Shown piece by piece: positions 241-44,437 of a stretch of DNA of 64,000 nt. A model generated the notes under the pieces. That model was not told where the DNA came from. It worked only from the letters and a program-made list of their open reading frames with translations, and searched no databases. Made by a program: the position numbers and the translations under genes. This DNA comes from Deltaproteobacteria bacterium (GTDB taxonomy: Bacteria > Desulfobacterota > Syntrophia > Syntrophales > JACQWR01), in NCBI GenBank assembly GCA_016209105.1, contig JACQWR010000011.1, positions 132,216 to 196,215 on the forward strand. Direction: 5' to 3'. Within the stretch, counting starts at the first letter, position 1. Each line of letters begins with the position of its first letter.

Positions 241-256
241 TGGCATGTCCATTGCA
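241..256 (+). promoter_or_regulatory. sigma54 (-24/-12) promoter candidate TGGCAT-N5-TTGCA
   Basis: tggcatgtccattgca matches the TGGCAC-N5-TTGCW consensus with GG and GC correctly spaced. It lies about 200 bp upstream of the fdhA start at 454. Confidence 0.5.
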
Positions 257-3400: not shown

Positions 3401-3540
3401 GGGCTAAAGACAAGAAACCGGAGCTGTTCACCCAGGGTGATTCGGCAAATCTTCTTACCCCGACAATAGGGGATGCCAATACCATGATTCCGGAAAGCAA
3501 GGCCTTCATGGTTAATCTCGTCAGGAAGGGGGTGGCTTAA
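454..3540 (+). CDS. fdhA: Formate dehydrogenase catalytic (alpha) subunit, periplasmic, selenocysteine-containing molybdopterin enzyme. ORFs 454..1014 and 1063..3540 are one gene read through UGA at 1012..1014.
   Basis: Twin-arginine signal (MRITRRGFLK). N-terminal Cys cluster CPYCSVGC. Both ORFs are in the same frame. The stop context translates as HQARI-U-HSATVAALAESFGRGAMTNHW, the classical FdnG/FdhA Sec motif. The rest is a molybdopterin oxidoreductase. Confidence 0.93.
1012..1047 (+). other. UGA selenocysteine recoding site plus candidate SECIS hairpin
   Basis: In-frame TGA at 1012..1014 at the conserved Sec position. Downstream, ggctctggcagagtc (1032..1046) can form a short stem-loop with a G-rich apical loop. 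The fold was assessed by eye only. Confidence 0.55.
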
Positions 3541-4296
3541 ATGGCCGAACAAATTCAGCTCATTGACACATCAAAATGTACGGGTTGCCGGGGTTGCCAA
3601 GTTGCCTGCAAGCAGTGGAACCAGTTATCGGCCCGGCAGACAACCAACAAAGGCTCTTATCAGAATCCGCCAGATCTTCAGGAAAATACCTGGACGCTTG
3701 TCCGCTTCCGGGAAGTTTCGGAGCAAGACGGCAGGGTGAAATGGACCTTCCGAAAAGACGGGTGTCTGCATTGCACCGACGCCACCTGCGTAAAGGTGTG
3801 CCCGGCCGGCGCCAGATTTCGTTTGAGTAATGGGGCGATAGGTACGGATAATGAAAAGTGCGTAGGCTGCCAGGCGTGCGTCGCTTCCTGTCCTTTCGAA
3901 AAATCCCGGTACTCGGAGGCGGCAAATAAGGCTTACAAATGCAACCTCTGCGCAGACAGGGTACAGGACGGCCTTCTCCCTGCCTGTGTTAAGGCCTGCC
4001 CCACGGGAGCGCTGAAATTTGGTGAAAGAGGGGAAATGCTCAAGTTGGCATACGCGCGGGTAAAGGAATTAGGAGGAGACGCCTCCGTTTACGGGGATAA
4101 ATTCTTCGGCGGAACGCATCTCATTTTTGTTCTTGAAGAAAAGGTTAATCTCTACGACGCCCTGCCCGCAAAACCAAAGGTCGCCTCTTCCGTTTTGTTC
4201 TGGAAGGATCTGCTGCAACCCTTTGGCTTGTGGGAGGCAGGCGCCGGAGTGGTGGTATCGTTTCTCTCCCGCAGCAGGATACACAGGACGGGATAG
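3541..4296 (+). CDS. fdhB: Formate dehydrogenase iron-sulfur (beta) subunit, 4x[4Fe-4S] ferredoxin type
   Basis: Start abuts the fdhA stop. Four Cys clusters are present: CTGCRGCQVACK, CLHCTDATCVKVCP, CVGCQACVASCP, CNLCADRV..ACVKACP. Confidence 0.9.
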   Translation: MAEQIQLIDTSKCTGCRGCQVACKQWNQLSARQTTNKGSYQNPPDLQENTWTLVRFREVSEQDGRVKWTFRKDGCLHCTDATCVKVCPAGARFRLSNGAIGTDNEKCVGCQACVASCPFEKSRYSEAANKAYKCNLCADRVQDGLLPACVKACPTGALKFGERGEMLKLAYARVKELGGDASVYGDKFFGGTHLIFVLEEKVNLYDALPAKPKVASSVLFWKDLLQPFGLWEAGAGVVVSFLSRSRIHRTG

Positions 4297-5140: not shown

Positions 5141-6571
5141 TCAAATCTTATCAATGCGCAAAATCTTCTTTCCCCACTTTTTCATGATCTCCGCCTTATA
5201 TTCCGGCGTCCGCTCGGTGACCTTCGGAAATTCCTTCAGCTTTTCCCAAGGACGGCAAGCGTCAATGATGGCCCGGGAATTGAACGTCGGCTCGCCGGGC
5301 GTCACCAGGGGATCCAGGTTTGAACTCCAGCAGCGATCCATGGTCACGATGTTCGTGGCCGGATCACAGCGGGTAGCCATGGCCCAGAGTACGGCATCCG
5401 TGTCAAAGGGGTCCACATCCTCATCCACAACGATGGTAAAGCGGTTCATGTAGGCGGCGGAATGAACCTGCGAGGCGATCATGCCCGCCTGCCGCGAGTG
5501 ACCGGCAAACCGTTGTTTAATGGCAATGATATTGATCAGCCGCGTTGACCCCGCCTCATGACACCAGACCCCCTTGACCTCCGGCACTCCCGCCGCTTCC
5601 AGTTCATCCCAGAGCAAAGCCGAGCGGATGTAGGAACGGTAGAGATGTTCCGCCGGAGGGCGATGCCCCACATAGACATGGAGGATAGGTTTATTGCGGT
5701 GATAGACGGCCTTCACCCGAAAGACCGGGCAGGGCATGGAACCGGAAGCATGGTAGCCCGGCCATTCCCCATAGGGGCCTTCGGGAAGCAGATCCCCGGG
5801 AACGCACTCGCCTTCCAACGCGATCTCCGCCGTCGCCGGGATAGGCAGGCCGGTATACGCGCCTTTGATGACCTCAACCGGCTTTCCCTGAAGCCCACCG
5901 GTAAAATCGTATTCTGAAATACCCCAGGGGATTTCCATACTGGAGGCCAGGTACAGGGTTGGATCCTGCCCCAGGGTAATCACGGCGGGACAGGGCTTCC
6001 CTTTATCGAAATATTTTGCCCGCTGGAGGGTGCCGTGCTTCCCCGGCGAGATATACCAACCGATGGATTGTTTATCAATGAGCTGTCCCCGATAGGTGCC
6101 GATGTTGACCCAGCCCTCATCGGGGTCCCGGGTGATGGACATGGCGCCCGTGGCAATGTAACGTCCTCCGTCCAGGTGATGGACCAGCGGAACGGGAAAC
6201 TTCAGGAGATTGATATCCCCGCCCGTAATGACATTCTCCATGACCGGCCCTGTCTTGACAAATTTCGGGGGGGTCAGCTTCAGTTCCTTGGATACCTTCC
6301 TCCATCGGTTAATAAAGTCTACCGGTTTGTAGTCCACCGGGAATCCCGCGGTGAGACAGAGGCGGGGGAGGGAACCGAGCACATTGCTCACAATCCTGTA
6401 TCCCGGAGGGTAATCCTTGATATTATCAAAGAGCAGAGCGGGGCGTTTCCCCGGCCTCTGGGAAACGACTTCCTCAATGCATCCGATTTCCAGATTCCAA
6501 TCGGCATGTTCCAGAGATAAGAGCTCCCCCATATCCTCGACTTTTTTAATCCACTCTCGTAAATCCTTCAT
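5141..6571 (-). CDS. UbiD-family (prFMN-dependent) reversible decarboxylase, substrate unknown
   Basis: 476 aa with typical UbiD features (DGGRYIATG, DPDEGWVNIGTYR, EGPYGEWPGY). Paralogous to 54392..55855. Confidence 0.9.
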   Translation of the reverse strand: MKDLREWIKKVEDMGELLSLEHADWNLEIGCIEEVVSQRPGKRPALLFDNIKDYPPGYRIVSNVLGSLPRLCLTAGFPVDYKPVDFINRWRKVSKELKLTPPKFVKTGPVMENVITGGDINLLKFPVPLVHHLDGGRYIATGAMSITRDPDEGWVNIGTYRGQLIDKQSIGWYISPGKHGTLQRAKYFDKGKPCPAVITLGQDPTLYLASSMEIPWGISEYDFTGGLQGKPVEVIKGAYTGLPIPATAEIALEGECVPGDLLPEGPYGEWPGYHASGSMPCPVFRVKAVYHRNKPILHVYVGHRPPAEHLYRSYIRSALLWDELEAAGVPEVKGVWCHEAGSTRLINIIAIKQRFAGHSRQAGMIASQVHSAAYMNRFTIVVDEDVDPFDTDAVLWAMATRCDPATNIVTMDRCWSSNLDPLVTPGEPTFNSRAIIDACRPWEKLKEFPKVTERTPEYKAEIMKKWGKKILRIDKI

Positions 6572-14090: not shown

Positions 14091-14106
14091 AGCAATATGC
14101 ATGCCA
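14091..14106 (-). promoter_or_regulatory. sigma54 promoter candidate (minus strand) TGGCAT-N5-TTGCT
   Basis: The reverse complement of agcaatatgcatgcca reads TGGCATGCATATTGCT. It lies about 220 bp upstream of the first operon gene and downstream of the sigma54 activator gene. Confidence 0.5.
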
Positions 14107-15930: not shown

Positions 15931-17046
15931 TCAGGAAAGCGGCGGCAGGTCGGCTTTTTCGACCTCGTACACCGATTCCATCTTGGGCGTAAGGCCGCGC
16001 TTCGCCAGCTCCGCGGCAAAGGTCTCCCGGATGAAGGCATCCTCATCGGCGTAATCAATCTGGGCTCCGCCAAGGCGCCTGCTGATCCAGCACAGCGGCA
16101 CCCCCTGCTCATTGCGGGCCGATACCCCCGCGAACTTGAACGCCAGATAGCTCGCCGGCGTGGTGCCGGTATTGAAGTGCTGATGGTACCATCCCTCGGG
16201 CGGCACGATCAGGCTGCCCTCTTTCCAATCGTAACGGTTGGGCTTGCCGCCTTCCGGCCACATGAGGCTGTATCCTTCCCCGTTCAAGACCATGACGTGG
16301 GCGCCGGGCCCGTGGGCATGCGCCTTTTTATACGTTGCGACGGGGAACTGGGAGATATGGCTGGGCAGAGACCCCTTGGCCAGGTTGAACCGGATATGGC
16401 CGCCGCCGCCGCCCCGTTCCTTGGTGAACACCAGGGGCAGATTGACGGCATCGGCAACAAAGTTTGTTTCCAGAAGCAGCCCCTTCTGTTCACCCTTTTT
16501 GCTGAAATAGTCCCGTTCGCCGGCGAAACGCTTCGGGAAATCGCGGGCGGTATTGAAGACGAAATCCACGTCATCGTAGAGATTCATCACCTGGGGGGCG
16601 TTCGTCACGCCCACATAGCGGGCCGCCGACTTTCCGGAAACGTTGAAATGCTGGTGCCAGGCATTGAGCGGTATGGCAAACAGCGCCCCCGCCTTCCACT
16701 CGAAGGTCACGCGCTGGCCCGCATCGTTCCATACGGATGTGGACCCGCGCCCGTCCAGGATATAGACCAGCTCTTCAAAGAGCTGCCGCTGCGGTTCGAG
16801 CTGCTTGCCCGCCGGGATCTCACAGATATAGCAGTCATTGGAATAATTCGACGCCTCGTGGTTGATGTAAACGCCGTAACCGCCGCGTCGGGCCCAGGGC
16901 TTCAGCCCCACCGTATGGAGATTCGGGATGTAGTGGCCGCTGATGATATCAAGCCCTTCCCCCCTGACCCAGGCCTTGTAAACGGAGTCTTTCTCCGTGG
17001 CGAATTTTTTTGCGAATTCTTCCGATACGACGATGTTATTTGCCAT
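15931..17046 (-). CDS. Bicupin protein, gentisate-1,2-dioxygenase-like fold family, function unknown
   Basis: Two cupin barrels, each ending in a W(H/Y)HQHFN motif. The C-terminal barrel has HAHGPGAH. Preferred start is ATG at 17046 (MANNIVV) behind GAGGGAGG. Paralog of 18925..20052. Confidence 0.75.
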   Translation of the reverse strand: MANNIVVSEEFAKKFATEKDSVYKAWVRGEGLDIISGHYIPNLHTVGLKPWARRGGYGVYINHEASNYSNDCYICEIPAGKQLEPQRQLFEELVYILDGRGSTSVWNDAGQRVTFEWKAGALFAIPLNAWHQHFNVSGKSAARYVGVTNAPQVMNLYDDVDFVFNTARDFPKRFAGERDYFSKKGEQKGLLLETNFVADAVNLPLVFTKERGGGGGHIRFNLAKGSLPSHISQFPVATYKKAHAHGPGAHVMVLNGEGYSLMWPEGGKPNRYDWKEGSLIVPPEGWYHQHFNTGTTPASYLAFKFAGVSARNEQGVPLCWISRRLGGAQIDYADEDAFIRETFAAELAKRGLTPKMESVYEVEKADLPPLS

Positions 17047-18813: not shown

Positions 18814-18927
18814 TTAAAGCTCCCCTTGAGCACGCTGCAAAGAATCTTTGGTTCTTAAGAAACACCATCAGCATTCGCTCGCTTACCCCGCGGCTTGCCG
18901 CGGGGAATGCGCTCGCTGCCGAATTCA
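18814..18927. repeat. Intergenic repeat family A, full-length copy
   Basis: ...attcgctcgcttaccccgcggcttgccgcggggaatgcgctcgctgccgaattca. Abuts the stop codon of bicupin 2. Confidence 0.75.
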
Positions 18928-20052
18928 GGCAGTTTTGCCCGGCAGAGGCGGCAGATCGGCCAGTTCCTGCTCATAGGATTTTTCCATCTCCGGCTTCATG
19001 CCGCGCTTCTGCAATTCTTCCACAAAAAGCTTTCTGATGGAGGGATCCTCGTCGGCATAATCAATTTGATCGCCGCCGATCCGCTTGCTGATCCATGCCT
19101 TCGGAACGCCCTGGGCGTTGCGGATGGATACTACCTCATGCTTAAAGGCCATGTAACGGCCGGGGGTAGTCCCCGTATTGAAATGCTGGTGGTACCACAT
19201 GTTCGGCGGAACTATCATGCTGCCTTCCTGCCAGTCGTATTTCCGCGGGGCATCGCCTTCGGGCCACATCAGGCTGTACCCCTCGCCGCTTAAGATAATG
19301 ACGTGGGCGCCTGGTCCGTGGGCGTGCCCCTTCTTGTACGTTTTGACCGGAAACTGGGAAATATGGCTGTTCATGGACCCCTTTGCCAGACTGAACCGGA
19401 TATGGCCGCCGCCGGCCCCGCGCTCCTTGGCGCTGATGAGCTGGAGATTGACGGCATCGGCGACGAAGTTGGTATCGAGCAGAAGCCCCTTCTGCTCTCC
19501 CTTCTTGCTGAAATAGTCCGGCTCGCCGGAAAAACGACTGGTAAAATCAAAAGACGTGTTGAAAACGAATTCGGGGGACTCGTAGAGGTTTATTACCGGA
19601 GGACCGTTCGTCACCGCCACATAGCGCGCCGGTTCCTTTCCCGAACCGTTGAAATGCTGGTGCCAGGCATTGAGCGGTATGGCAAACAGCGCCCCCGCCT
19701 TCCACTCGAAGGTCACGCGATTGCCCTTATCGTTCCATACGGACGTGGAACCCCGCCCATCCAGAACGTAGATCATCTCCTCGAACAGCTGCCGCTGGGG
19801 CTCCAGCTGTTTGCCTGCCGGAATCTCGCAGACGTAGCAGTCGTTGGACGTTCTTGAGGCCTCATGATTAATGTAAACCCCCAAGCCGCCGCGCCTGCGC
19901 CAGGGCTTCACTTCCACCGTATGCAGATTAGGGATGTAGTGGGCGCTGATAATGTCCAACCCCTCTTTTTTGATCCATGCGTCATAGGGGGTGTCTTTTT
20001 CCGATGCAAACTTTTCTGCAAACTCCTTGGGCACTAGTGCATCTTTTGCCAT
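18925..20052 (-). CDS. Bicupin protein, paralog of 15931..17046
   Basis: Same architecture and motifs. Preferred start is ATG at 20052 (MAKDALV) behind AGGAGAGAAG. Shares a 72-bp stretch of 100 percent identical DNA with its paralog. Confidence 0.75.
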   Translation of the reverse strand: MAKDALVPKEFAEKFASEKDTPYDAWIKKEGLDIISAHYIPNLHTVEVKPWRRRGGLGVYINHEASRTSNDCYVCEIPAGKQLEPQRQLFEEMIYVLDGRGSTSVWNDKGNRVTFEWKAGALFAIPLNAWHQHFNGSGKEPARYVAVTNGPPVINLYESPEFVFNTSFDFTSRFSGEPDYFSKKGEQKGLLLDTNFVADAVNLQLISAKERGAGGGHIRFSLAKGSMNSHISQFPVKTYKKGHAHGPGAHVIILSGEGYSLMWPEGDAPRKYDWQEGSMIVPPNMWYHQHFNTGTTPGRYMAFKHEVVSIRNAQGVPKAWISKRIGGDQIDYADEDPSIRKLFVEELQKRGMKPEMEKSYEQELADLPPLPGKTA

Positions 20053-34668: not shown

Positions 34669-34857
34669 TTAAAGATTCCCGCAGCAAGCGTTCACTTCCT
34701 TACCCCAAAACCAAGCTCAAGGGGGTGCGCTCGCTGCTGAATTGAAGCCCTCCGCAGCACACTGCGGAGGGTCTCCGATTTCCAAGGAACATTATTACTA
34801 TCATTCGCTCGCTTACCCCGCGGCTTGCCGCGGGGTAAGCGCTCGCTGACGAATTCA
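34669..34857. repeat. Intergenic repeat family A, tandem: a partial copy followed by a full copy
   Basis: The first unit runs 34669 to about 34746. The second unit, ttgaagccctccgcagcacactgcggagg...cgcttaccccgcggcttgccgcggggtaagcgctcgctgacgaattca, follows directly. Confidence 0.7.
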
Positions 34858-34954
34858 TCTTGACTATATCCTGTCTCATACCATAAAAGATTTACCGTAT
34901 CTTTATAATCATCCAGCGCTGAACCGCTTATTTTTGAAAACGGAAAGGGAAAAC

Positions 34955-36529
34955 GTGCGACTGAAGCTTATCTCCAAACTGACCATATCCGCCAGCGCAG
35001 TGCTGATTATCTTCATGGCCATTTTTGCCTACGTCAACCTCGCTACCATGCGCAAACTCCTCCTGGAAGAGGCTATTTTGGATGCGGACAAGCTGAGTGA
35101 AACCATCATCAAAACAACCCACTACCAAATGCTGGAGGATGACCGGGAACGAGTTTATCAGATGATAAGCGAAGTCGGGACCCAGGCCGACATCGAGAGG
35201 ATACGCCTGATAACGAAGGAGGGAATCACCATTTTTTCCACAGACAAAAATGAGATCGGCGCCTTCCTCGATAAAAAAGCGGCGGCCTGCAACATGTGTC
35301 ACGCCGGTGAGAAACCCCTGCTGCACGCATCTTCCATGAACAGGAGCCGTGTTTTTCGCGTCGGGGAAAATAAAGAAGTCCTCGGCATGGCCAAGGCAAT
35401 CTACACCGAGAAGAAATGCTATACCGCCCCCTGCCATTTCCACCCCAAAGACGCACGGATTCTGGGGGTGCTTGATGTCATAGTTTCTCTCGACGGCATG
35501 CACCGCCAACTCGCTTCTTACCGCAACAAGATAATCGTAGCCGCCATCATTCTGCTGGGGATCACCTCGCTTTGTCTTTCCCTTTCCTTGCGACAGCTCG
35601 TCAGCAAGCCGGTGAAGCAACTGCTCCGGCAAACGGAGAAGCTTTCCCGGGGCGAGATGGACGACAGCATTAATTTCTCCTCCGCCGATGAACTGGGAGA
35701 ACTGGCTAATTCCTTTAATATTATGACGCAAAAGCTGAAGAATGCGAGGAATGAATTGGAAGAATGGGCAAGGACATTGGAAGTGAGGGTTGAAGAGAGA
35801 GGCAGAAAACTCAAGCAGATACAATCCCAACTCGTGCGCTCGGAAAAGCTTGCCTCCCTGGGCAAGCTGGCGGCGGGCGTCGCCCATGAAATCAACAACC
35901 CGCTCACCGGCATATTGATGTTTGCGTCACTGACACGCAAAAACGAAAATCTTGAGCCGTCCGTTAAAAATGACCTGGATATGATCATCACAGAAACACA
36001 GCGCTGCGCCCAGATTGTCAAGGGTCTACTCGACTTTTCCCGGGAATCGGTGCCCCAGAAGAAACCGTCATCCATAAACGCTATCATGGATGCCACGCTG
36101 GCCCTGATTGAAAATCAGTCCCGCTTTCAAAATATAGCCATCACCCGTGAATATAGCCAGGAAATCCCGCACGTTCTTGTTGACCCCAACCAGATAGAAC
36201 AGGTTTTTGTCAATATGCTCTTAAACGCCAGCGATGCCATGCCCAGTGGAGGCAAAATTCTGATAAAAACGGACACACGGGAAAACCATGTCCGCGTAAC
36301 GATAACCGACACCGGAACCGGGATCAGCGAGGAAAACCTGGAGAAAATATTCGACCCGTTTTTCACCACGAAGGATGCCAGGGGAACCGGTCTTGGTCTA
36401 TCCGTTTCCTACGGAATCATTGAAAGCCATGGCGGAAAGATAGAAGTGGAAAGCGCGGTTGGGATCGGAACAACCGTCACGATCATTCTTCCCCTTCCGG
36501 AGGGGAATACCTATGCGGGAAATCCTTAG
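34955..36529 (+). CDS. Sensor histidine kinase with a periplasmic heme-c-motif sensor domain, HAMP, HisKA and HATPase domains
   Basis: TM - periplasmic domain with CNMCH and CYTAPCH - TM - HAMP - H-box VAHEINNPL - N/G boxes. Preferred start is GTG at 34955; the ORF track start 34934 is TTG. Confidence 0.85.
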   Translation: MRLKLISKLTISASAVLIIFMAIFAYVNLATMRKLLLEEAILDADKLSETIIKTTHYQMLEDDRERVYQMISEVGTQADIERIRLITKEGITIFSTDKNEIGAFLDKKAAACNMCHAGEKPLLHASSMNRSRVFRVGENKEVLGMAKAIYTEKKCYTAPCHFHPKDARILGVLDVIVSLDGMHRQLASYRNKIIVAAIILLGITSLCLSLSLRQLVSKPVKQLLRQTEKLSRGEMDDSINFSSADELGELANSFNIMTQKLKNARNELEEWARTLEVRVEERGRKLKQIQSQLVRSEKLASLGKLAAGVAHEINNPLTGILMFASLTRKNENLEPSVKNDLDMIITETQRCAQIVKGLLDFSRESVPQKKPSSINAIMDATLALIENQSRFQNIAITREYSQEIPHVLVDPNQIEQVFVNMLLNASDAMPSGGKILIKTDTRENHVRVTITDTGTGISEENLEKIFDPFFTTKDARGTGLGLSVSYGIIESHGGKIEVESAVGIGTTVTIILPLPEGNTYAGNP

Positions 36530-36600: not shown

Positions 36601-38049
36601 TTAGTTGCCGTTATGGTTCCGAACAGATATTCCGAGTTTCTTCAGGAGGGCATGAAAATTCGGCCGAAGCATTCCCGTCTCCTCCGCGGCCTTGGTAATG
36701 TTCCAGTTGTTCCTCTCCAAAGCGCTTAAGACAAAAGCTTTTTCTATGTTTTCCACCGCTTGTTCGCGAATTTGACGCTTTGTCTCCTTCAATTCGTCGA
36801 GGTTTTGGGGAACAAAACCAATGGCCTTGAGTTTTTCAGCGGAAAGGGGCAGTTCCAGATCCTGCTTCTGAATAATATCACCCGTACAAAGCACAACCGC
36901 CCGCTCAATGATATTTTCCAACTCGCGCACATTCCCCGGGAAGGGATACTCTTCCAGCAGAGACAATGCCTCCGGATGCACCCCCCGCAGTTCCTTGCCT
37001 GTTTCTTCCGCATATTTCTTCAGGAAGCGACCAATGAGCAGCGGCAGGTCCCCTTTTCTTTCCCGGAGGGGCGGCAATTGAATGGGTATGACGTTGAGAC
37101 GAAAAAAAAGATCCTCCCGGAAACTGCCTTCCGCAACCTGTGTGCGCAGGTTCCTGTTCGTAGCCGCCACCAGACGTATATCTATGGAAATCAACTTCGT
37201 ATCGCCGATCGGCGTAATTACCCGTTCCTGCAGGACACGCAAAAGTTTCGCCTGGGTAGCCAGGCTGATGTTCGCGATCTCATCCAGGAAGAGGGTGCCG
37301 CCGTCGGCCACCTTGAAGAGACCCATTTTGGTCTGGATGGCGCCGGTGAAAGAACCCTTTACGTGCCCAAAAAGCTCGCTCTCCAGCAGGTTTTCGGCCA
37401 GAGAAGTGCAGTCCACCGCAACAAAGGGCTGTTCGCGCCGGTGACTGTTCTTATGAATGGCACGGGCCACCAATTCTTTTCCCGTGCCGCTTTCGCCGCT
37501 GATCAGTACGGTGCTGTCCGTGGGGGCGACCTGGATGATACGATTATATACCTTCTGCATCTCCGGACTTTCCCCCACAAACAAATCAAATCCGTGATGC
37601 TCAATGACCTCTTGCTTCAGATAGATATTTTCCAGGAGCACGGTCTTCTGGGCAATGGCATTTCGGGCCTTTTCACTGATCTGCTCCGCAGTGAAGGGTT
37701 TGGCGATGTAATCGAAGGCGCCGTTTTTCATGGCTTCCACGGCCGTATCAACCGTGGAGTAGCCGGTAATAAGAATGACGGGAACTTCTGGCTGAAGCAC
37801 CTTTATGGCCTTCAGGACCTCGATGCCGTCCATCCCGGGCATTTTCAGGTCCGTGATAACCAGATCAAAGCTCTTCCCCTGTATTGCCTCGATCGCCACA
37901 TAGCCGCTGGCAGAGGTGTCCACAGCGTACCCGTCCGCCTCAAGGATACGGCGCATGCCTTCCCGTATTACGGCTTCGTCATCCACAACCAGGATATTAA
38001 ACCGGTCTCCTGTCTCTGTAACCATTGTTCCGGCAACCCCTTCCGGCAT
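36601..38049 (-). CDS. sigma54-dependent response regulator (REC + AAA+ + HTH), NtrC family
   Basis: REC domain with DLVITDLKMPG, GESGTGKE, VKGSFTGA and a C-terminal HTH. Convergent with the kinase gene. Confidence 0.9.
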   Translation of the reverse strand: MPEGVAGTMVTETGDRFNILVVDDEAVIREGMRRILEADGYAVDTSASGYVAIEAIQGKSFDLVITDLKMPGMDGIEVLKAIKVLQPEVPVILITGYSTVDTAVEAMKNGAFDYIAKPFTAEQISEKARNAIAQKTVLLENIYLKQEVIEHHGFDLFVGESPEMQKVYNRIIQVAPTDSTVLISGESGTGKELVARAIHKNSHRREQPFVAVDCTSLAENLLESELFGHVKGSFTGAIQTKMGLFKVADGGTLFLDEIANISLATQAKLLRVLQERVITPIGDTKLISIDIRLVAATNRNLRTQVAEGSFREDLFFRLNVIPIQLPPLRERKGDLPLLIGRFLKKYAEETGKELRGVHPEALSLLEEYPFPGNVRELENIIERAVVLCTGDIIQKQDLELPLSAEKLKAIGFVPQNLDELKETKRQIREQAVENIEKAFVLSALERNNWNITKAAEETGMLRPNFHALLKKLGISVRNHNGN

Positions 38050-38385
38050 TAGAGTAGAGATCCTCTCCCCCTTAGAGTCGGGATATTAAACGGTACCACT
38101 GGCAGGGGATTTTAGATGAAAGCCACCGATATATCAAGTTAAATCAGCAACCACTCAACCATCATTGTATTATTCATTATTGGCGGCGTATTGCGGTTCC
38201 GGTGGTTTGGAAAAACAAACTTTAGGTGAACCGTAAATCAGAACCTCAGTGCGTTCTTAACCGGCAAGAAAACCGACCCCAAACGTATTTTTTTTCTATA
38301 CACCTTCCTCCTTATGCTAAAGTATTTATTATTAAAGGTATTATAATCCCCCCACCCTGTATCCTCCCCTCTTCGGCCCCGGCTG

Positions 38386-38404
38386 TGTATAGACTTTCTA
38401 TACG
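38386..38404. promoter_or_regulatory. Inverted repeat TGTATA-N7-TATACG, candidate UAS with the same half-sites as 106..124
   Basis: tgtatagactttctatacg lies about 100 bp upstream of the sigma54 promoter candidate at 38501. A looser copy (cgtat-N8-tataca) lies at 38284..38302. Confidence 0.3.
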
Positions 38405-38500: not shown

Positions 38501-38516
38501 TGGCACAACCTATGCT
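38501..38516 (+). promoter_or_regulatory. sigma54 promoter candidate TGGCAC-N5-ATGCT
   Basis: tggcacaacctatgct, about 70 bp upstream of the ATG at 38585. Confidence 0.5.
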
Positions 38517-38584: not shown

Positions 38585-38830
38585 ATGAAAACCATCGCAA
38601 GACACATGGTAATGATACTTTCCATAGCTTCCCCGGCACTTGCTGCCAATGGTATCGAACCGGAAGGAAATGGTCTCTTGGTCATCCTTTTTCTGGGCTT
38701 TGGAGCCCTTATCATCGTCTTCCAACTGATCCCCGGGTTGATGCTGTTCGGGTCCATGGTCAAGGGGCTTTTTTGCAAACCCACGAAAACGACGTTTTGG
38801 GCCGGCAGGAAAACGGCTAAAACCAACTGA
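38585..38830 (+). CDS. 81-aa signal-peptide plus single-TM protein, unknown family (paralog of 39312..39557)
   Basis: Strong RBS (aaaggaggagagcc) before ATG at 38585. Signal peptide ending ALA-AN, TM core ALIIVFQLIPGLMLF, basic tail. Confidence 0.55.
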   Translation: MKTIARHMVMILSIASPALAANGIEPEGNGLLVILFLGFGALIIVFQLIPGLMLFGSMVKGLFCKPTKTTFWAGRKTAKTN

Positions 38831-38879
38831 AAACCAAGACACGCCTGGATCTTTGGGAAAGGAGAGCGATAAAGCCATT

Positions 38880-39284
38880 ATGGACCTTCTCATCGCAGAC
38901 AAAGACGTGGACGCCCGCAACCAGATGGCCGATCTTTTTACGGAAGCGGGGTATGATGTCACCGTTGAAAATTCGGCGCTGAATGTATTGTACGACATTC
39001 TGAAAGGAAAAGCCGAGGTGGTCTTGTTGGGGAGTGAGCTGGATGACCTTAAAGCGGGTGATTTGGTGCCCCTTCTAAAAAAATGCAACCGTCACCTGGT
39101 CATCATTCTCGTAGCGGACGATACCCCGCTCCCCCTCATCAGAAAATTCCGCAAGGAGGGAATCTTTTACCACGCCCTGCGGCCCGTTGAACCGGAAGAT
39201 CGGCAAGAAATTCGCGACGTCGTAGAATGCGCCTTCAAAAATCTCCTGAACGCAAAACCACGACGACGCCCAGGATACAACTAA
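38880..39284 (+). CDS. Stand-alone receiver-like (pseudo-receiver) domain protein
   Basis: CheY-like alternating pattern (LLIADKD..., VVLLGSELDD, VIILVADD, ALRPVEP). By eye the phosphoacceptor Asp position reads Gly and the conserved Lys reads Arg. The start is either ATG at 38880 or TTG at 38853. Confidence 0.55.
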   Translation: MDLLIADKDVDARNQMADLFTEAGYDVTVENSALNVLYDILKGKAEVVLLGSELDDLKAGDLVPLLKKCNRHLVIILVADDTPLPLIRKFRKEGIFYHALRPVEPEDRQEIRDVVECAFKNLLNAKPRRRPGYN

Positions 39285-39311
39285 CGGCAACGTTAAACAA
39301 AGGAGTACGCC

Positions 39312-39557
39312 ATGAAAACAACAATAAACAAAACCATGCTCACCTTAATGATTTGGCAGTGCCTGACGATCCCTGCTTATGCAGCCGCCGGCGCCCGGGA
39401 AGACAACAGCAGCATCTTTGTGTGGATTTTCCTCGCCCTCTGCGCCCTGATCATTGTCGGCCAACTTATCCCAGCCCTCCTGGTACTGACCGGTTTTGCC
39501 AAAGGACTTAAAAAGACGGAACCGAAAGAAGCGGCCCCCAAGAATGCTGCCAATTGA
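39312..39557 (+). CDS. 81-aa signal-peptide plus single-TM protein, paralog of 38585..38830
   Basis: RBS aaaggagtacgcc before the ATG. Signal peptide ending AYA-AAG, TM core ALIIVGQLIPALLVL, Lys-rich tail. Same length as its paralog. Confidence 0.55.
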   Translation: MKTTINKTMLTLMIWQCLTIPAYAAAGAREDNSSIFVWIFLALCALIIVGQLIPALLVLTGFAKGLKKTEPKEAAPKNAAN

Positions 39558-39671
39558 ATTCGCTCGCTTGGCATTCCCCGTAGCTTGCTCAAGGGGTAAG
39601 CGAGTGAATGCTGAACAGTATTGTTCCTTAAGAATCGAAGATTCGCCGCAGCAAGCTGCGGAGAGCTTCAA
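39555..39671. repeat. Intergenic repeat family A, full copy in inverted orientation
   Basis: tgaattcgctcgcttggcattccccgtagcttgctcaaggggtaagcgag...ccttaagaatcgaag...ccgcagcaagctgcggagagcttcaa. Starts on the stop codon of the small ORF. Confidence 0.7.
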
Positions 39672-39967
39672 ATAGTTATCCCCAGGGGGAAATAAAGCTC
39701 CCGCTCACCGCTCCGGGGCGCGCCTTGCCTCTCGAAGAATGACAATCTGCAGGCGCCCCCCTCACCCGCCCGCGCGGGGGGACTTGCTTGCACGCGTTCC
39801 CGGTCGGTTTTTCCCGTCTCCCCTGAGCAGGGGAAGGCCATGCGAGGGGAGTTTCTCACCGGAAGGATTATCCCCAGAACGCCGCCGCATGGATATATTT
39901 CCACCGTCCAATAAGCACGTCTGCCGTTTGTTCCCCCTCATACCACACGAAATTCTCAGAGAATCAG

Positions 39968-40075
39968 TTGAAGTTTTTCGCAGTTTACTGTAAAGAATCT
40001 CCGATCCCAACGTAATAGCGCCACGAAGTATTCGCTTGCTTGCACTGCAACTGCGGGGAATGCGCTCACCGCCGC
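39968..40075. repeat. Intergenic repeat family A, diverged direct-orientation copy
   Basis: ttgaagtttttcgcag...aagaatctccgatcccaa...attcgcttgcttgcactgcaactgcggggaatgcgctcaccgcc. Confidence 0.55.
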
Positions 40076-40133
40076 ATCCTCGCACGAACGGGATCAGCCG
40101 AACAATCATAAATATGACAAGGAGGGACATGTT

Positions 40134-41189
40134 TTGAGAGTGCATACCAAGATGCTCATAGTTCTTGTTCTCGCGGTATTCATGGCAGCGACCGAGATAT
40201 CGGCCTCGACCGGGGGAAATTCCCGATGCATTCAATGCCACGGCAATCACGCCATCATAGCAAAAGGGGGTGGACATCTTTACATAGATCCGGCAAAATT
40301 CACCGGTACTACGCATGAAATTATCGGCTGCACGTCTTGTCATGATAAAGTGGGGAAGCGGCATCCTGACGACCGCATTAGGCCGTCACGGGCAAACTGC
40401 AAAGAATGTCACGCAGCAGTATATGAAGAATATGCCCATAGCCTGCATGGCAATAACGCCCGTTGCGCCGACTGCCACAACCCGCATGCGGCAAAACCGT
40501 TGTTGTCCGTGTCTGGACGCGACATTAATGTCCAGTGCGCCAAATGTCACGATGGCGCAAAAACCCTGGCCAGTCACTCCCAATGGCTGCCCCAGGCGGC
40601 GCTGCATATTGACGCCTTGCCCTGCATAACCTGCCATACGGGATCAAAAAATTACGTTATTACCCTCTATATAGAAAAGCGGGAAAAAGACAAACCACAC
40701 CGTGATTTTGAGCCGGCGCGCTATGAGGATCTGGCCAAGCTGTTGCCGGCCGCTAAAAAAACAGGGGCACTGGTGGATAGCAACGAGGACAATTTCATAT
40801 CTCTCGATGAATTGAAAAAATTTAACCGGGGGGCGCGCTACAAAGGTATGCGTCTCTGGGGCATGATGACTCCGGAAGTGGCGACCCACACCTACCAGAT
40901 CCTGGATAACCGTTGGGACTGCACATTCTGTCATGCATCGGGTCCGGAAGCCATGCAAACAAGCTATGTGGCCTTTCCCGATAAGAACGGCACATTCAAC
41001 CGGATACCCGTGGAAAAAGGCGCCATTCTGGACATCCTGTACGGAACCCCGGATTTTTACATGCTGGGTGCCACAAGAAGCGTCACCCTGAATATCATCG
41101 GAGCGATCATCGTGATCGGCGGGCTTCTGGTACCGATTATTCACGGCACGTTCAGGATACTCACCATAAAGAAGAGAAAGGGGCACTGA
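40134..41189 (+). CDS. Membrane-anchored heptaheme c-type cytochrome
   Basis: Signal peptide and seven CXXCH motifs (CIQCH, CTSCH, CKECH, CADCH, CAKCH, CITCH, CTFCH). C-terminal TM helix ([16 protein letters not shown]). TTG start behind AGGAGGG. Confidence 0.8.
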
Positions 41190-41191
41190 TC

Positions 41192-41827
41192 ATGCAACAC
41201 GAAGAGCAAATCTATCTCACCCCCATGCCGGTCAGGATCTGGCACTGGTTGAATGCTTTGGGAATTGTAACGCTCTGCATTACCGGCCTACAGATCAGGT
41301 TCCCGGAGTACGTAAACATATTCGGAACCTACAAGGCGGCCATACGGCTTCACGACACAGCCGGAATAACCGTTTCCATCTCCTACTTTCTCTGGCTGTT
41401 CTACTATATTTTCGTGGGCGGAAACCTGCTGAAAGTGTATTTTCCCAATTTAGACGATATTAAACATGGATTGGTCGTGCAGGCTTTTTTTTACTTCTTT
41501 AATTATTTTCTGGGTAAGCCGAACCCGCATACGGCAACGCCGGACAACAAGTTTAACGCCGTGCAGAAGCTCAGCTATCTGGCGATAATGCTCGCGCTCC
41601 TCCCGCTGGTCATCGTGAGCGGCATCCTGCTCATGAACGTCGCCCCGTTTCGCGGCTGGATCACCATGATCGGCGGGATAAAATTTCTCGTGGGAGCGCA
41701 TTTCCTGATCGCCTGTTCCTTCGTGGCTTTCCTTTTTGTCCACATCTACATGGCAACCATGGGGCATACCCCCTTCGCCCACTTCAAACCCATGTGGACC
41801 GGCTGGGAAAAAGTAACGCATCAATAA
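41192..41827 (+). CDS. Membrane b-type cytochrome (Ni/Fe-hydrogenase / FdnI / PhsC-like cytochrome b family)
   Basis: Four predicted TM helices with conserved His residues (IWHWLNAL, RLHDTAG, GAHFLI, FVHIYMATMGH). Starts 2 nt after the heptaheme gene stop. Confidence 0.8.
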   Translation: MQHEEQIYLTPMPVRIWHWLNALGIVTLCITGLQIRFPEYVNIFGTYKAAIRLHDTAGITVSISYFLWLFYYIFVGGNLLKVYFPNLDDIKHGLVVQAFFYFFNYFLGKPNPHTATPDNKFNAVQKLSYLAIMLALLPLVIVSGILLMNVAPFRGWITMIGGIKFLVGAHFLIACSFVAFLFVHIYMATMGHTPFAHFKPMWTGWEKVTHQ

Positions 41828-41845: not shown

Positions 41846-42607
41846 ATGAAATCCCGCTGGACCCTTCCCATCATCACACTCGCAATTCTTATTCGTTCTG
41901 CGGCATTTGCCGTGGATATCCCGGATGTAACGTTCAAAACCAGAGAAGTAGGCACGGTAATCTTCAGTCACAAGTTTCACATCAAGCAAAAGGGGCTAAA
42001 GGACAACTGCAAGTCCTGCCACAAGGCCATATATGACCTCAGAAAAAAGGTTCCATTTACCATGGCGGACATGAAAAAAGGAAAATCGTGCGGCGCCTGC
42101 CATGACGGGAAAAAAGCATTCGGCATCGCTCAGTGCGTCAGGTGTCACCCGGCGGGCAACGTTATTTTCAAGGTGAAGGAAACCGGTCCGGTGCTCTTTC
42201 GTCACGACAACCACCTCGCCATCTATGCATGCCGCAGCTGCCATACCAAACTGTACGAGGCGGGACCGAACAAAAGAACAACTATGGCACAAATGGAGAA
42301 GGGCAAATCCTGCGGCGCCTGTCACAACGGTAAAAACGCCTTCAGCGCCGGCGAATGCATAAAGTGCCACCCCGTGAAAGAAATCGAGTTCAAGATCAAA
42401 GAGGTGGGAAATGTCACATTCAGTCATACCGCTCACACGGGCATGTATCCCTGCGGCGAATGTCACGACAAACTGTATCTTCCCTCCTCAGGGAACAAGA
42501 GAATATCCATGAGCGATATGGAAAAGGGGAAGTCATGCGGAGCTTGCCATGATGCCGGCAGCGCATTCACGGTCAAGGAGAACTGTGATAAGTGTCACAA
42601 AATGTGA
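41846..42607 (+). CDS. Periplasmic nonaheme cytochrome built from three c7-type triheme repeats
   Basis: Signal peptide and nine CXXCH motifs in three repeats of the pattern V.F.H..H....C..CH......+..M..M.KGKSCGACH.G..AF....C..CH. Confidence 0.85.
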   Translation: MKSRWTLPIITLAILIRSAAFAVDIPDVTFKTREVGTVIFSHKFHIKQKGLKDNCKSCHKAIYDLRKKVPFTMADMKKGKSCGACHDGKKAFGIAQCVRCHPAGNVIFKVKETGPVLFRHDNHLAIYACRSCHTKLYEAGPNKRTTMAQMEKGKSCGACHNGKNAFSAGECIKCHPVKEIEFKIKEVGNVTFSHTAHTGMYPCGECHDKLYLPSSGNKRISMSDMEKGKSCGACHDAGSAFTVKENCDKCHKM

Positions 42608-42717: not shown

Positions 42718-43539
42718 ATGCTTAAATCTATCACTGCCAAGGCCATTATACCGGTAACGGTGGCAATCACCGGTTTCGTTATTGTCGGCTGCATTCTCCT
42801 GTATTCGATTATGAAGGCGGACATGATTGCCGATGCCGTTAAGTACGAAACGAACCTGGCAAACACGATCGTAAAATCAACGCGCCATGCCATGTTAAAG
42901 TCCGATCGTGAGACATTGCGAAATATCATTGACAATATCGGCACCCAGGAGGGAGTGGAACATGTAAGAATTTTCAACAAAAAGGGGCTCATCATGTTCT
43001 CAAACAATACCGGTGAGGTAAACCGCTTCGTGGATAAAAAGACTGCCGGCTGTGTGGAATGCCACACGGGGCCCGTGCCATCGGCCACCCTGGGCAATAT
43101 GAAGCAGGCGCGACGATTCGTCAATGAACACGGAGGCGACGTGCTTGCCATAACCGCGCCGATCTACAATGAGCCCGAGTGCTACAATGCCGCCTGCCAT
43201 ATCCATACAGCGGAGCAGAAAATCCTCGGCACGCTCGATATTGGCCTGGATGCGTCACCCTTGTTGAAAAATCTCTCCGTTATGCGCGGCCGAATGGTTG
43301 TTTTCAGCATCATGATCCTGATCTTGACCGTGGGAGGAGTAGCCGCGCTCTTGAAGCGCAGTGTCTTTGATCCCATAAAACGGCTGACCGAGTTTACCGG
43401 GGAGGTGATGGCGGGCAACATCGAGCGAAGCTTTCCGGAAGGAAGCGGCGATATTGAAAGACTTGCGGTAAACTTTCGCGCGATGGCTGCAAAACTGAAC
43501 AGCGCCTCCGAGGAACTGAGAATGCTCAAAGGGAAATAG
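42718..43539 (+). CDS. TM / heme-c-motif periplasmic sensor / TM / HAMP protein with no output domain
   Basis: The periplasmic domain is homologous to that of the kinase at 34955 (CVECH and CYNAACH at equivalent positions). It ends about 50 aa after the HAMP domain, with no HisKA/HATPase/MCP/GGDEF domain. Confidence 0.65.
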   Translation: MLKSITAKAIIPVTVAITGFVIVGCILLYSIMKADMIADAVKYETNLANTIVKSTRHAMLKSDRETLRNIIDNIGTQEGVEHVRIFNKKGLIMFSNNTGEVNRFVDKKTAGCVECHTGPVPSATLGNMKQARRFVNEHGGDVLAITAPIYNEPECYNAACHIHTAEQKILGTLDIGLDASPLLKNLSVMRGRMVVFSIMILILTVGGVAALLKRSVFDPIKRLTEFTGEVMAGNIERSFPEGSGDIERLAVNFRAMAAKLNSASEELRMLKGK

Positions 43540-43894: not shown

Positions 43895-44437
43895 ATGAAC
43901 GAGACGACTACTACGCCACCGCCGGAAGGGCAGGAAGCCGATCACGACAGCACTGAGCGGATGCGTGGGAAAATCAGGGAAACTATCAGGAGGCTTCATG
44001 GCCGGTTTGATAGAATGCTCCTGGCAATCGCAGCGTTTACCCTTCTCAGCATTTTCGCACGGAGAGATTTCGCCCCCTTCCCCTCGCTTCCGGAAACCGT
44101 CAGGGAAGTTCTCGGACACCCTCCCTCGGTAAACATGATCAACTCGGCACTCGTTGTCTACAGCTTTTCGGCCATACTGCTCATACTGGCAAGAATGATG
44201 GGGGGATATGGAAGTTACAGCGGACTGGTGCACGTCGGTTATCTGGCCTCCTTTTACGGTTTCTATCACTTCTCCGGCACGCTGAATGAAAACTTTTGGG
44301 CCGTTTTTGCCGCCGGCACGACGATCCTCTGTCTGGAGGCCTATCATGTCTGGCTTTACTGTGTGGAGGAAATAAAAAAAGAACAGGAAACACTGGAGGA
44401 AATGGAAAGGAAGTGCGGCGCAGAGGAAAAACGGTAA
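43895..44437 (+). CDS. Hypothetical integral membrane protein
   Basis: 180-aa ORF with about three hydrophobic helices, a charged N-terminus and a Glu/Lys-rich C-terminus. No family recognised. Confidence 0.45.
   Translation: MNETTTTPPPEGQEADHDSTERMRGKIRETIRRLHGRFDRMLLAIAAFTLLSIFARRDFAPFPSLPETVREVLGHPPSVNMINSALVVYSFSAILLILARMMGGYGSYSGLVHVGYLASFYGFYHFSGTLNENFWAVFAAGTTILCLEAYHVWLYCVEEIKKEQETLEEMERKCGAEEKR

Follow-up and report, generated by a model that had tools for sequence, protein, structure and literature searches.

The 64,000-nucleotide stretch analyzed here, which we call the window, comes from a Deltaproteobacteria bacterium of the order Syntrophales (GenBank assembly GCA_016209105.1, contig JACQWR010000011.1, positions 132,216 to 196,215 of the forward strand). 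It contains two short genes encoding the paralogous membrane proteins mini1 and mini2 and, between them, a gene for a receiver-like protein devoid of the phospho-acceptor Asp. This trio precedes genes for c-type and b-type cytochromes. The three genes and the elements upstream of them are arranged as follows.

38387..38403, + strand: palindrome GTATAGACTTTCTATAC (GTATA-N7-TATAC), ~115 nt 5′ of the −24 element
38501..38516, + strand: sigma54-type −24/−12 element TGGCACAACCTATGCT, one mismatch to TGGCAC-N5-TTGCW
38585..38830, + strand: mini1, 81 amino acid residues, orthologue of GSU0597
38880..39284, + strand: Asp-less receiver, 134 amino acid residues from its ATG, orthologue of the GSU0596 "response receiver"
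39312..39557, + strand: mini2, 81 amino acid residues, paralogue of mini1, orthologue of GSU3489

Relatives of the receiver were collected from 292 species-representative genomes; the best 80 of the 292 loci were analyzed and, with the window, make up the 81 loci compared below. They are numbered from L001 onward, and L082 denotes the complete genome of Geobacter metallireducens GS-15 (CP000148.1). Mini-proteins at these loci were called by plain phmmer with mini1 and mini2 as queries, and both queries retrieve an identical set of 143 open reading frames (ORFs). GGAG-type ribosome-binding sites stand ahead of the mini1, receiver, and mini2 starts. The global BLOSUM62 alignment of mini1 with mini2 scores 88, against −28 ± 11.6 for 1000 shuffles with a maximum of 10, and the core ALIIV(F/G)QLIP(G/A)L is common to both proteins. 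Each begins with a putative signal peptide, MKTIARH-MVMILSIASP-ALA/A in mini1 and MKTTINK..TIP-AYA/A in mini2 (the slash marks the putative cleavage site), which has a basic N-terminus, an h-region of merely ~12–14 residues, and small residues at −3 and −1, of which the latter, Ala, does not vary among 60 homologues. One strong transmembrane segment follows in each protein, at residues 31–49 of mini1 and 35–53 of mini2, and the helix residues F36, L37, A41, L42, Q47, and P50 are likewise invariant in the 60 homologues. In mini1, an acidic stub leads to a transmembrane helix with FQLIPG, after which come the motif KGLF and a basic tail. The mini2 protein carries the periplasmic stub GAREDNSSIFVW, of a type described below as the CbcBA type, and a Cys in the transmembrane helix that is nearly invariant in the family. 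The mean net charge of the tail is +2.1 in the mini1 family and +2.9 in the mini2 family.

The copy ahead of the receiver is nearer to mini1 in 76 of 76 loci, and the one behind it is nearer to mini2 in 65 of 77. This indicates that the duplication is old and that both lines have been retained. The two proteins are ancient paralogues, each predicted to consist of a Sec-type signal peptide, a single transmembrane helix, and a basic tail. One Geobacter/Geomobilimonas subclade has a third, divergent paralogue without the Q..P motif (..DLIGIVFWIFVAYCALIIVPHGIRAL..) between mini2 and the cytochrome gene cbcA, at four loci (L024, 6718–6954; L026, 6717–6968; L027, 6715–6966; L031, 6717–6953).

A profile search over 1.84 billion representatives, clustered at 50% identity, extended the mini-protein family to 673 clusters, 308 of them at E ≤ 1e-10. 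The clusters are nearly all stand-alone proteins of 70–95 residues, and the related ones listed have no Pfam domain and are named "hypothetical protein". Neither mini-protein matches Pfam or NCBIfam, and a scan of 60 homologues at E ≤ 1 returned just composition-driven matches (SRTM1, NEMP). Single-nucleotide codon differences fall at the third position in 44140 cases compared with 16605 and 8803 at the other two, and ~60% are synonymous; this substitution pattern shows purifying selection on the trio genes.

The middle ORF has an alternative in-frame TTG upstream, at 38853. Its product scores 24.4 bits against Pfam Response_reg (PF00072), below the gathering score of 30.2, and many of its homologues carry a precomputed PF00072 match. 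The AlphaFold model (predicted local distance difference test, pLDDT, 74.6) is matched by Foldseek to the solved receiver (REC) domains of NtrX, XynC, and Spo0F with template modelling scores of 0.72–0.83. In a profile alignment to Spo0F, D10 corresponds to A6, D11 to D7, the phospho-acceptor D54 to G51, T82 to A79, and K104 to R101. Across the 81 loci, the phospho-acceptor position is occupied by Gly in 52 and Ser in 29, in no case by an acidic residue. In the acidic pair, the first residue is Ala (63) or Val (18) and the second is Asp (73), Glu (7), or His (1), while the Thr position holds Ala (37), Ser (34), Thr (7), or Gly (3) and the Lys position holds Lys (61), Arg (19), or Pro (1). The loss of the acceptor is a family trait, and the Lys-to-Arg change is a conservative one of the window's clade. 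Judged from these residues, the protein cannot be phosphorylated; since the receiver fold is kept and the acceptor Asp is missing, its classification as a response regulator would be misplaced. Conservation peaks at α4-β5-α5 (RKxRKEGIFYHAL[KR]P..EDxxEIR..V.CAF), the face that receivers commonly use for partners, and the receiver family shows no variation at C69, H98, and C117. That family comprises 688 homologous clusters, of which the best 120 listed are 61–100% identical to the window protein. An origin by recent duplication of the receiver domain of the adjacent activator BccR was ruled out, with 19% identity between the two.

A sequence-only reading of this DNA had proposed two 81-residue ORFs with strong ribosome-binding sites, paralogous in plan and core, on either side of a CheY-fold protein whose phospho-acceptor Asp and conserved Lys appeared substituted. 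The ORFs were recovered at exactly those coordinates, the paralogy and the shared plan (an A-x-A site, one transmembrane helix, a positive tail) are borne out, the small ORFs are conserved in related genomes (65 of the 81 loci and the 673 clusters), and Gly or Ser replaces the Asp in 81 of 81 loci. The substitution of the Lys is true of the window but does not describe the family, which mostly retains it.

The −24/−12 element TGGCACAACCTATGCT sits 84 nt 5′ of the mini1 ATG. We found the motif GGCA[CT]-N5-nTGC[AT] 58–94 nt 5′ of mini1 in most of the 74 mini1-bearing loci (49 by a strict regular expression and the rest by visual inspection); three outliers have it at 153–180 nt. Besides the palindrome GTATAGACTTTCTATAC, the window has a near-match, GTATT-N7-TATAC, at ~38285–38301, ~217 nt 5′ of the −24 element. 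The pattern GTATA-N7-9-TATAC occurs in 47 of 71 loci compared with 0.56 in shuffles, and its position relative to the −24 GG peaks at −100 to −120 (32 sites) and −180 to −220 (15 sites). The palindrome is a candidate enhancer (upstream activating sequence, UAS) and may be the binding site of BccR; together with its spacing from the −24/−12 element, it suggests an enhancer-dependent sigma54 layout, which fits the reported BccR dependence of the corresponding operon in Geobacter sulfurreducens. A second sigma54 promoter before cbcA was not found at ≤2 mismatches in 39558–40133, whereas loci L014 and L028 have one.

The genes surrounding the trio in the window are the following.

34934..36529, + strand: sensor histidine kinase; Pfam HAMP, HisKA, and HATPase_c; two transmembrane segments
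36601..38049, − strand: BccR-like NtrC-family sigma54 activator; Sigma54_activat 6.8e-71, Response_reg 3.8e-34, HTH_8
40134..41189, + strand: CbcA-like heptahaem c-type cytochrome; seven CxxCH, Pfam multihaem families
41192..41827, + strand: CbcB-like b-type cytochrome; PF01292 1.9e-27, 70% identity to G. metallireducens
41846..42607, + strand: CbcC-like periplasmic cytochrome; Cytochrome_C7 6.1e-52, TIGR04257 5.2e-83
42718..43539, + strand: CbcD-like sensor-HAMP protein; weak Pfam Cache and HAMP matches
43895..44437, + strand: CbcE-like membrane protein; 54% identity to its positional counterpart in G. metallireducens

The periplasmic sensor domain of the kinase has a haem motif, one CxxCH at residue 119, and a kinase homologue lies near the trio in 72 of the 80 related loci; the G. 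sulfurreducens kinase is GSU0599. The activator, which is divergent from the trio, contains a REC domain with an intact Asp and an AAA+ domain, shares 78% identity with its G. metallireducens counterpart, is found in 70 of the 80 loci, and corresponds to GSU0598 bccR. The CbcA-like protein has a C-terminal transmembrane anchor at ~318–336 and is 62% identical to that of G. metallireducens; the CbcB-like protein is presumed to be the quinol-oxidizing membrane subunit. The CbcC-like protein is built from three c7-type trihaem domains, matched by Cytochrome_C7 in three stretches, with nine CxxCH. The CbcD-like protein is composed of a periplasmic haem-motif sensor, a transmembrane segment, and a C-terminal HAMP domain, with no kinase domains behind it. 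It aligns with the N-terminal half (sensor and HAMP) of the kinase at 32% identity over 265 residues (E 6e-46). CbcD is thus a kinase-less paralogue of the kinase, and the cluster holds a kinase-less sensor, an Asp-less receiver, and a full two-component pair of kinase and BccR. The periplasmic domains of the kinase and CbcD each have one CxxCH and one CxxxxCH-like motif. The CbcE-like gene is found in 56 of the 80 loci, and the G. metallireducens gene at its position gives a weak Yip1 match.

On the published map, the G. sulfurreducens cbcBA operon opens with GSU0597, continues with GSU0596 and GSU3489, and then has cbcA and cbcB; GSU0596 is labelled a response regulator and the two genes beside it hypothetical. 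A sigma54 promoter lies 5′ of GSU0597, and the operon depends on the divergent bccR (Joshi, Chan and Bond 2021; bioRxiv 10.1101/2021.04.15.440034). In that organism cbcBA is induced late in Fe(III) reduction and is needed below ~−0.21 V, and the operon region is among the most conserved cytochrome regions of Geobacter (bioRxiv 10.1101/2021.04.15.440034). Other papers list cbcC, cbcD, and cbcE downstream in the Geobacter cluster, with CbcD called "HAMP domain-containing" in PMC7894505, and the trio genes are listed as co-regulated in RNA-seq tables (PMC10599522). We matched the trio to the G. sulfurreducens genes through the published map and through other Geobacter genomes, and compared the GS-15 sequences in their place. 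The ten-gene cluster of the window is collinear with that of GS-15 at 54–78% identity; both small ORFs are annotated as genes in GS-15, where mini1 is 60% and mini2 64% identical to the window proteins. The closest locus found, L001, belongs to the metagenome-assembled genome of an uncultured Syntrophales bacterium, and its receiver is 90% identical to that of the window. The window locus is a Syntrophales-related member of the Geobacter-type Cbc5 (cbcBA) low-potential respiratory clusters, because the order small gene–receiver–small gene–cbcA–cbcB, the sigma54 site, the divergent BccR, the downstream cbcC, cbcD, and cbcE, and the collinearity with GS-15 all match. It differs from the G. sulfurreducens cluster in that CbcC has nine haems instead of 12, and from the Geobacter loci in that a 577-nt non-coding, repeat-bearing spacer separates mini2 from cbcA.

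The sigma54 promoter and the heptahaem, cytochrome b, and nonahaem genes that the sequence-only reading had assigned are thus present, and the trio does head the cytochrome genes in order; owing to the spacer, it does not stand directly ahead of the heptahaem gene. That reading also did not recognize the trio as a described system, which is half right. The genes are already documented in the cbcBA operon, uncharacterized, and no function has been assigned to them: in the literature searched, operon maps and expression tables give them just the labels "hypothetical protein" or "response receiver". Relative to that literature, the new observations are the family-wide loss of the Asp, the two peptide lines, the two enzyme types, the travel of mini2 with the enzyme, the fusions, and the palindrome.

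We found that the trio accompanies two unrelated quinol oxidoreductase modules. After mini2, 23 of the 80 loci have cbcA and cbcB, and 44 have a 5-haem cytochrome, a Tat-type (twin-arginine translocation) iron–sulfur protein, and an NrfD-like membrane protein. The kinase, activator, mini1, receiver, CbcD, and CbcE are common to the CbcBA loci and the NrfCD-like loci. The stub of mini2, on the other hand, is specific to the module. It reads G[AG]RED[NS]SG.FVW in 18 of 21 CbcBA loci, with L001, L022, and L059 deviating at one or more positions, and typically [ST]T.[KR][VT][YF].SG.LV, a loose consensus, in the NrfCD loci; the two classes never cross module types. The nearest neighbor of mini2 is of the same module type in 63 of 63 loci. 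The identities within and between module types, and the number of module-type changes counted on neighbor-joining trees, were as follows for each protein.

mini2: identity 0.46 within, 0.36 between; 1 type change
CbcC: identity 0.58 within, 0.51 between; 1 type change
receiver: identity 0.71 within, 0.68 between; 5 type changes
mini1: identity 0.40 within, 0.39 between; 3 type changes
activator: identity 0.68 within, 0.67 between; 3 type changes
kinase: identity 0.42 within, 0.41 between; 9 type changes
CbcD: identity 0.47 within, 0.46 between; 7 type changes
CbcE: identity 0.46 within, 0.44 between; 4 type changes

Trees of 80-residue proteins are noisy; noise would raise the mini2 count too and does not. 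Taken together, the identities and the trees place mini2 in an exchangeable respiratory cassette, and mini1 and the receiver in a regulatory backbone. At locus L015, cbcB and cbcA precede the kinase on the opposite strand (844–1968, − strand) and an NrfCD-type module follows the trio (downstream of 6001), so that both enzyme types surround one regulatory core.

The order mini1–receiver–mini2 occurs in 65 of the 81 loci, and the activator lies on the strand of the trio in eight loci. At L014 and L028, the kinase, mini1, receiver, and mini2 are followed by the activator on the opposite strand and then by cbcA and cbcB; the trio has its own sigma54 site there, and a second sigma54-like site precedes cbcA/cbcB. 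At four loci (L060, L065, L067, and L072), the trio, or just mini1 and the receiver, comes with a sigma54-like site and with no cytochrome, kinase, or activator gene within 6 kb. The receiver, along with the mini-proteins where present, directly follows the kinase gene at L014, L028, L035, L036, L046, and L056; phmmer gave no mini-protein match at L035 and L056. Locus L047 has tandem modules, a complete trio with an NrfCD-type mini2 at 2898–3815 and a second copy, mini1 and receiver without mini2, at 5680–6372, the latter immediately preceding the 5-haem cytochrome.

In two of the 50%-identity clusters, the receiver and a complete mini2, including its signal-like segment, are joined in single ORFs of ~220 residues. 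One of these clusters has seven members on different contigs from JGI, Logan, ENA, and NCBI, and the fusions arose in two independent lineages. The junction translates the ribosome-binding site (..KKEKAM..), which identifies the fusions as losses of the stop codon. The fused topology would be self-consistent, with the receiver in the cytoplasm, the signal-like segment running from inside to outside, the stub outside, and the helix returning from outside to inside. The fusions give modest support to a joint action of the receiver and mini2 at the membrane. Programmed read-through from the receiver into mini2 was considered and rejected, because the relative frames are distributed 28/24/19 across the loci without bias, though the two genes share a frame in the window.

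The spacer between mini2 and cbcA (39558–40133) contains hairpins resembling repetitive extragenic palindromes (REP). One of them directly abuts the trio.

39558..39609, + strand: REP-like palindromic repeat, a 17-bp hairpin right after the mini2 stop

This hairpin folds at −24.1 kcal/mol (z −2.6) and could uncouple the transcript levels of the trio and cbcAB. The REP-like repeat (CATTCGCTCGCTTAC...GGGGAATGCG) has 13 matches in the window at ≤3 mismatches compared with 1.8 expected. Three copies lie inside the spacer and others at 18872, 21480, 25953, 33934, 34802, and 54233, and the copy at 34795–34860 folds at −32 kcal/mol (z −6). In Geobacter loci the mini2–cbcA spacer is ~100 nt, and the spacer of the window barely aligns with that of its closest relative. 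A search of the trio and its surroundings against Rfam at E ≤ 1 gave nothing at the gathering threshold and one sub-threshold match, to the Streptomyces small RNA scr4677 at 39709–39845 (+ strand) in the GC-rich spacer (20 bits compared with a gathering score of 41, E 0.012), which is probably due to chance. No terminator-like site was detected on the + strand in or around the trio. Elsewhere in the window, one-mismatch sigma54-like sites are present at 241–256 (+ strand, TGGCATGTCCATTGCA) and 14091–14106 (− strand, TGGCATGCATATTGCT). A 300-nt direct repeat (16248–16547 and 19254–19553; 79% identity; offset 3006 nt) occurs together with identical minus-strand sigma54-like 16-mers, TGGCACCAGCATTTCA, at 16644 and 19650; on sequence grounds, the arrangement suggests the tandem duplication of a gene along with its promoter.

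The sequence-only reading had left the role of the trio at an assembly, anchoring, or signalling adaptor. That range is compatible with the evidence, which points to a split between mini2, which goes with the respiratory module, and mini1 and the receiver, which go with the regulatory genes. We tentatively prefer, at somewhat less than even chances, the interpretation that the trio is an adaptor that is tethered to the membrane, works without phosphorylation, and connects the oxidoreductase to the circuit of the haem-sensor kinase and BccR, because it is the sole model that covers both a module-specific mini2 and a module-independent receiver kept with the regulators. The trio is the first product of the BccR/sigma54-controlled Cbc5-type cluster. 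Cleavage of the signal peptides would leave peptides of ~55–60 residues in the inner membrane, with the N-terminus outside and the C-terminus inside, and mini1 and mini2 may pair through their Gln- and Pro-containing helices. The juxtamembrane KG(L/I)F segments and the basic tails could then hold the mildly acidic pseudo-receiver at the membrane. The mini2 protein would touch its own quinol:cytochrome c oxidoreductase, CbcBA in the window, and the α4-β5-α5 face of the receiver would touch the kinase, the receiver domain of BccR, or the HAMP domain of CbcD. In this way, the trio might signal back, to the circuit inducing the low-potential oxidoreductase, whether that enzyme is present or what state it is in. 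Somewhat less probable is the fuller proposal that the trio constitutes an unrecognized kind of signalling device, in which a heterodimer of the two processed single-pass peptides would tether the Asp-less receiver and mini2 would serve as the exchangeable plug that links CbcBA or NrfCD-like enzymes to the circuit of the kinase, BccR/sigma54, and CbcD.

Several observations weigh against the adaptor. That mini2 segregates with the module could be due to linkage between neighboring genes and not to contact. Locus L069 has the receiver directly before cbcA without mini-proteins, and L040 and L041 are without mini1. The fused ORFs may be tolerated stop losses in which mini2 is still translated separately, and the AlphaFold model of a fusion shows no confident inter-domain arrangement (predicted template modelling score 0.47, linker and signal pLDDT <50). 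The identity of 19% to the BccR REC domain gives no indication in sequence of mimicry. In the portion compared of the proteome supplement of PMC7894505, GSU0594 and GSU0598 are listed, but none of GSU0596, GSU0597, and GSU3489.

The same evidence bears on other explanations of the trio. The peptides may instead be small transmembrane subunits of the oxidoreductase and the receiver a cytoplasmic assembly or stabilizing factor without a part in signalling, an alternative that is the main rival of the adaptor and somewhat less probable. It agrees with the position of the trio in the operon of the enzyme, just upstream of it, in most loci, with the module specificity of mini2, which moves with the enzyme and CbcC, and with the conserved Gln and Pro of the transmembrane helix, which suggest helix–helix packing. 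However, mini1 and the receiver ignore the enzyme type and are retained with two architecturally unrelated enzymes, the trio can form a sigma54 unit of its own, apart from the cytochromes or with none within 6 kb, and L069 has cbcAB and the receiver in the absence of the peptides; a receiver fold, being a signalling module, would also be unusual in an assembly factor. It is unlikely, in our estimation, that the trio serves a feedback on the kinase alone. In that case the peptides would dock onto the kinase or onto CbcD, within the membrane or in the periplasm, the receiver, itself non-phosphorylatable, would compete with BccR for the docking site of the kinase, and contact with the oxidoreductase would be unneeded. 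The placement of the trio as the first product of a BccR/sigma54 promoter with a conserved palindrome and −24/−12 element, its constant co-occurrence with the kinase, activator, and CbcD, and the six loci at which the receiver directly follows the kinase gene are in line with such a feedback, but the segregation of mini2 alone with the oxidoreductase type is left unexplained, no sequence kinship to known kinase-regulating peptides emerged from the Pfam and NCBIfam scan at E ≤ 1, and the receiver is as distant from the BccR receiver domain as stated above.

Still less probable is a redox or quinone sensor, in which the receiver would bind a quinone or react via its invariant Cys and His residues while the peptides hold it beside the quinol oxidase. 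The invariance of C69, H98, and C117, the nearly invariant Cys in the mini2 helix, and the context of a low-potential quinol oxidoreductase would suit a sensor; from the canonical topology, however, C69 (α3) and C117 (α5) are expected on opposite faces of the sheet. That the small ORFs are chance ORFs or an untranslated leader has next to no probability. They are short and hydrophobic, belong to no Pfam or NCBIfam family, and are missing from the supplement proteins mentioned above; their position, length, and sequence are nevertheless conserved in at least 65 of the 81 loci, their family spans 673 clusters with a third-position bias, and they are annotated in G. metallireducens, so this explanation was ruled out.

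Prior studies aimed at cbcA, cbcB, and bccR and passed over the three leading genes as hypothetical. The trio is a conserved unit in hundreds of species and adds, counted in clusters, an unannotated family of small membrane proteins with at least 673 members. It offers a lead on how cells switch on or restrain a respiratory branch of very low energy yield.

Asp-less pseudo-receiver domains are carried by KaiA, CikA, AmiR, and FrzS, and those of KaiA and CikA are reported to bind quinone. Like them, the window protein combines a (βα)5 fold with the loss of the acceptor Asp, so that binding of a protein or ligand is expected and not phosphotransfer. The comparison is one of fold, and the receivers of the present family differ in being stand-alone proteins of 126–140 residues with their own invariant α4-β5-α5 motif, flanked by the two peptides. 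MgrB and SafA are small membrane proteins that act on PhoQ and are induced by the two-component system that they inhibit. The mini-proteins resemble MgrB, SafA, and MzrA in being short, single-pass, and encoded in the regulon of a neighboring two-component system, but they show no homology to these proteins, form a paralogous pair with cleavable-looking signal peptides, have a pseudo-receiver as partner, and include a member, mini2, that co-varies with the enzyme. Small accessory subunits of respiratory complexes, such as the CydX-type subunits and those of cytochrome b6f, share with the mini-proteins a mature length of ~55–60 residues, one transmembrane helix, and a location in a redox-enzyme operon, to which the enzyme specificity of mini2 may be added. 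Homology is again lacking, though; mini1 and the receiver, moreover, do not depend on the type of enzyme, and the trio as a whole can be encoded apart from it.

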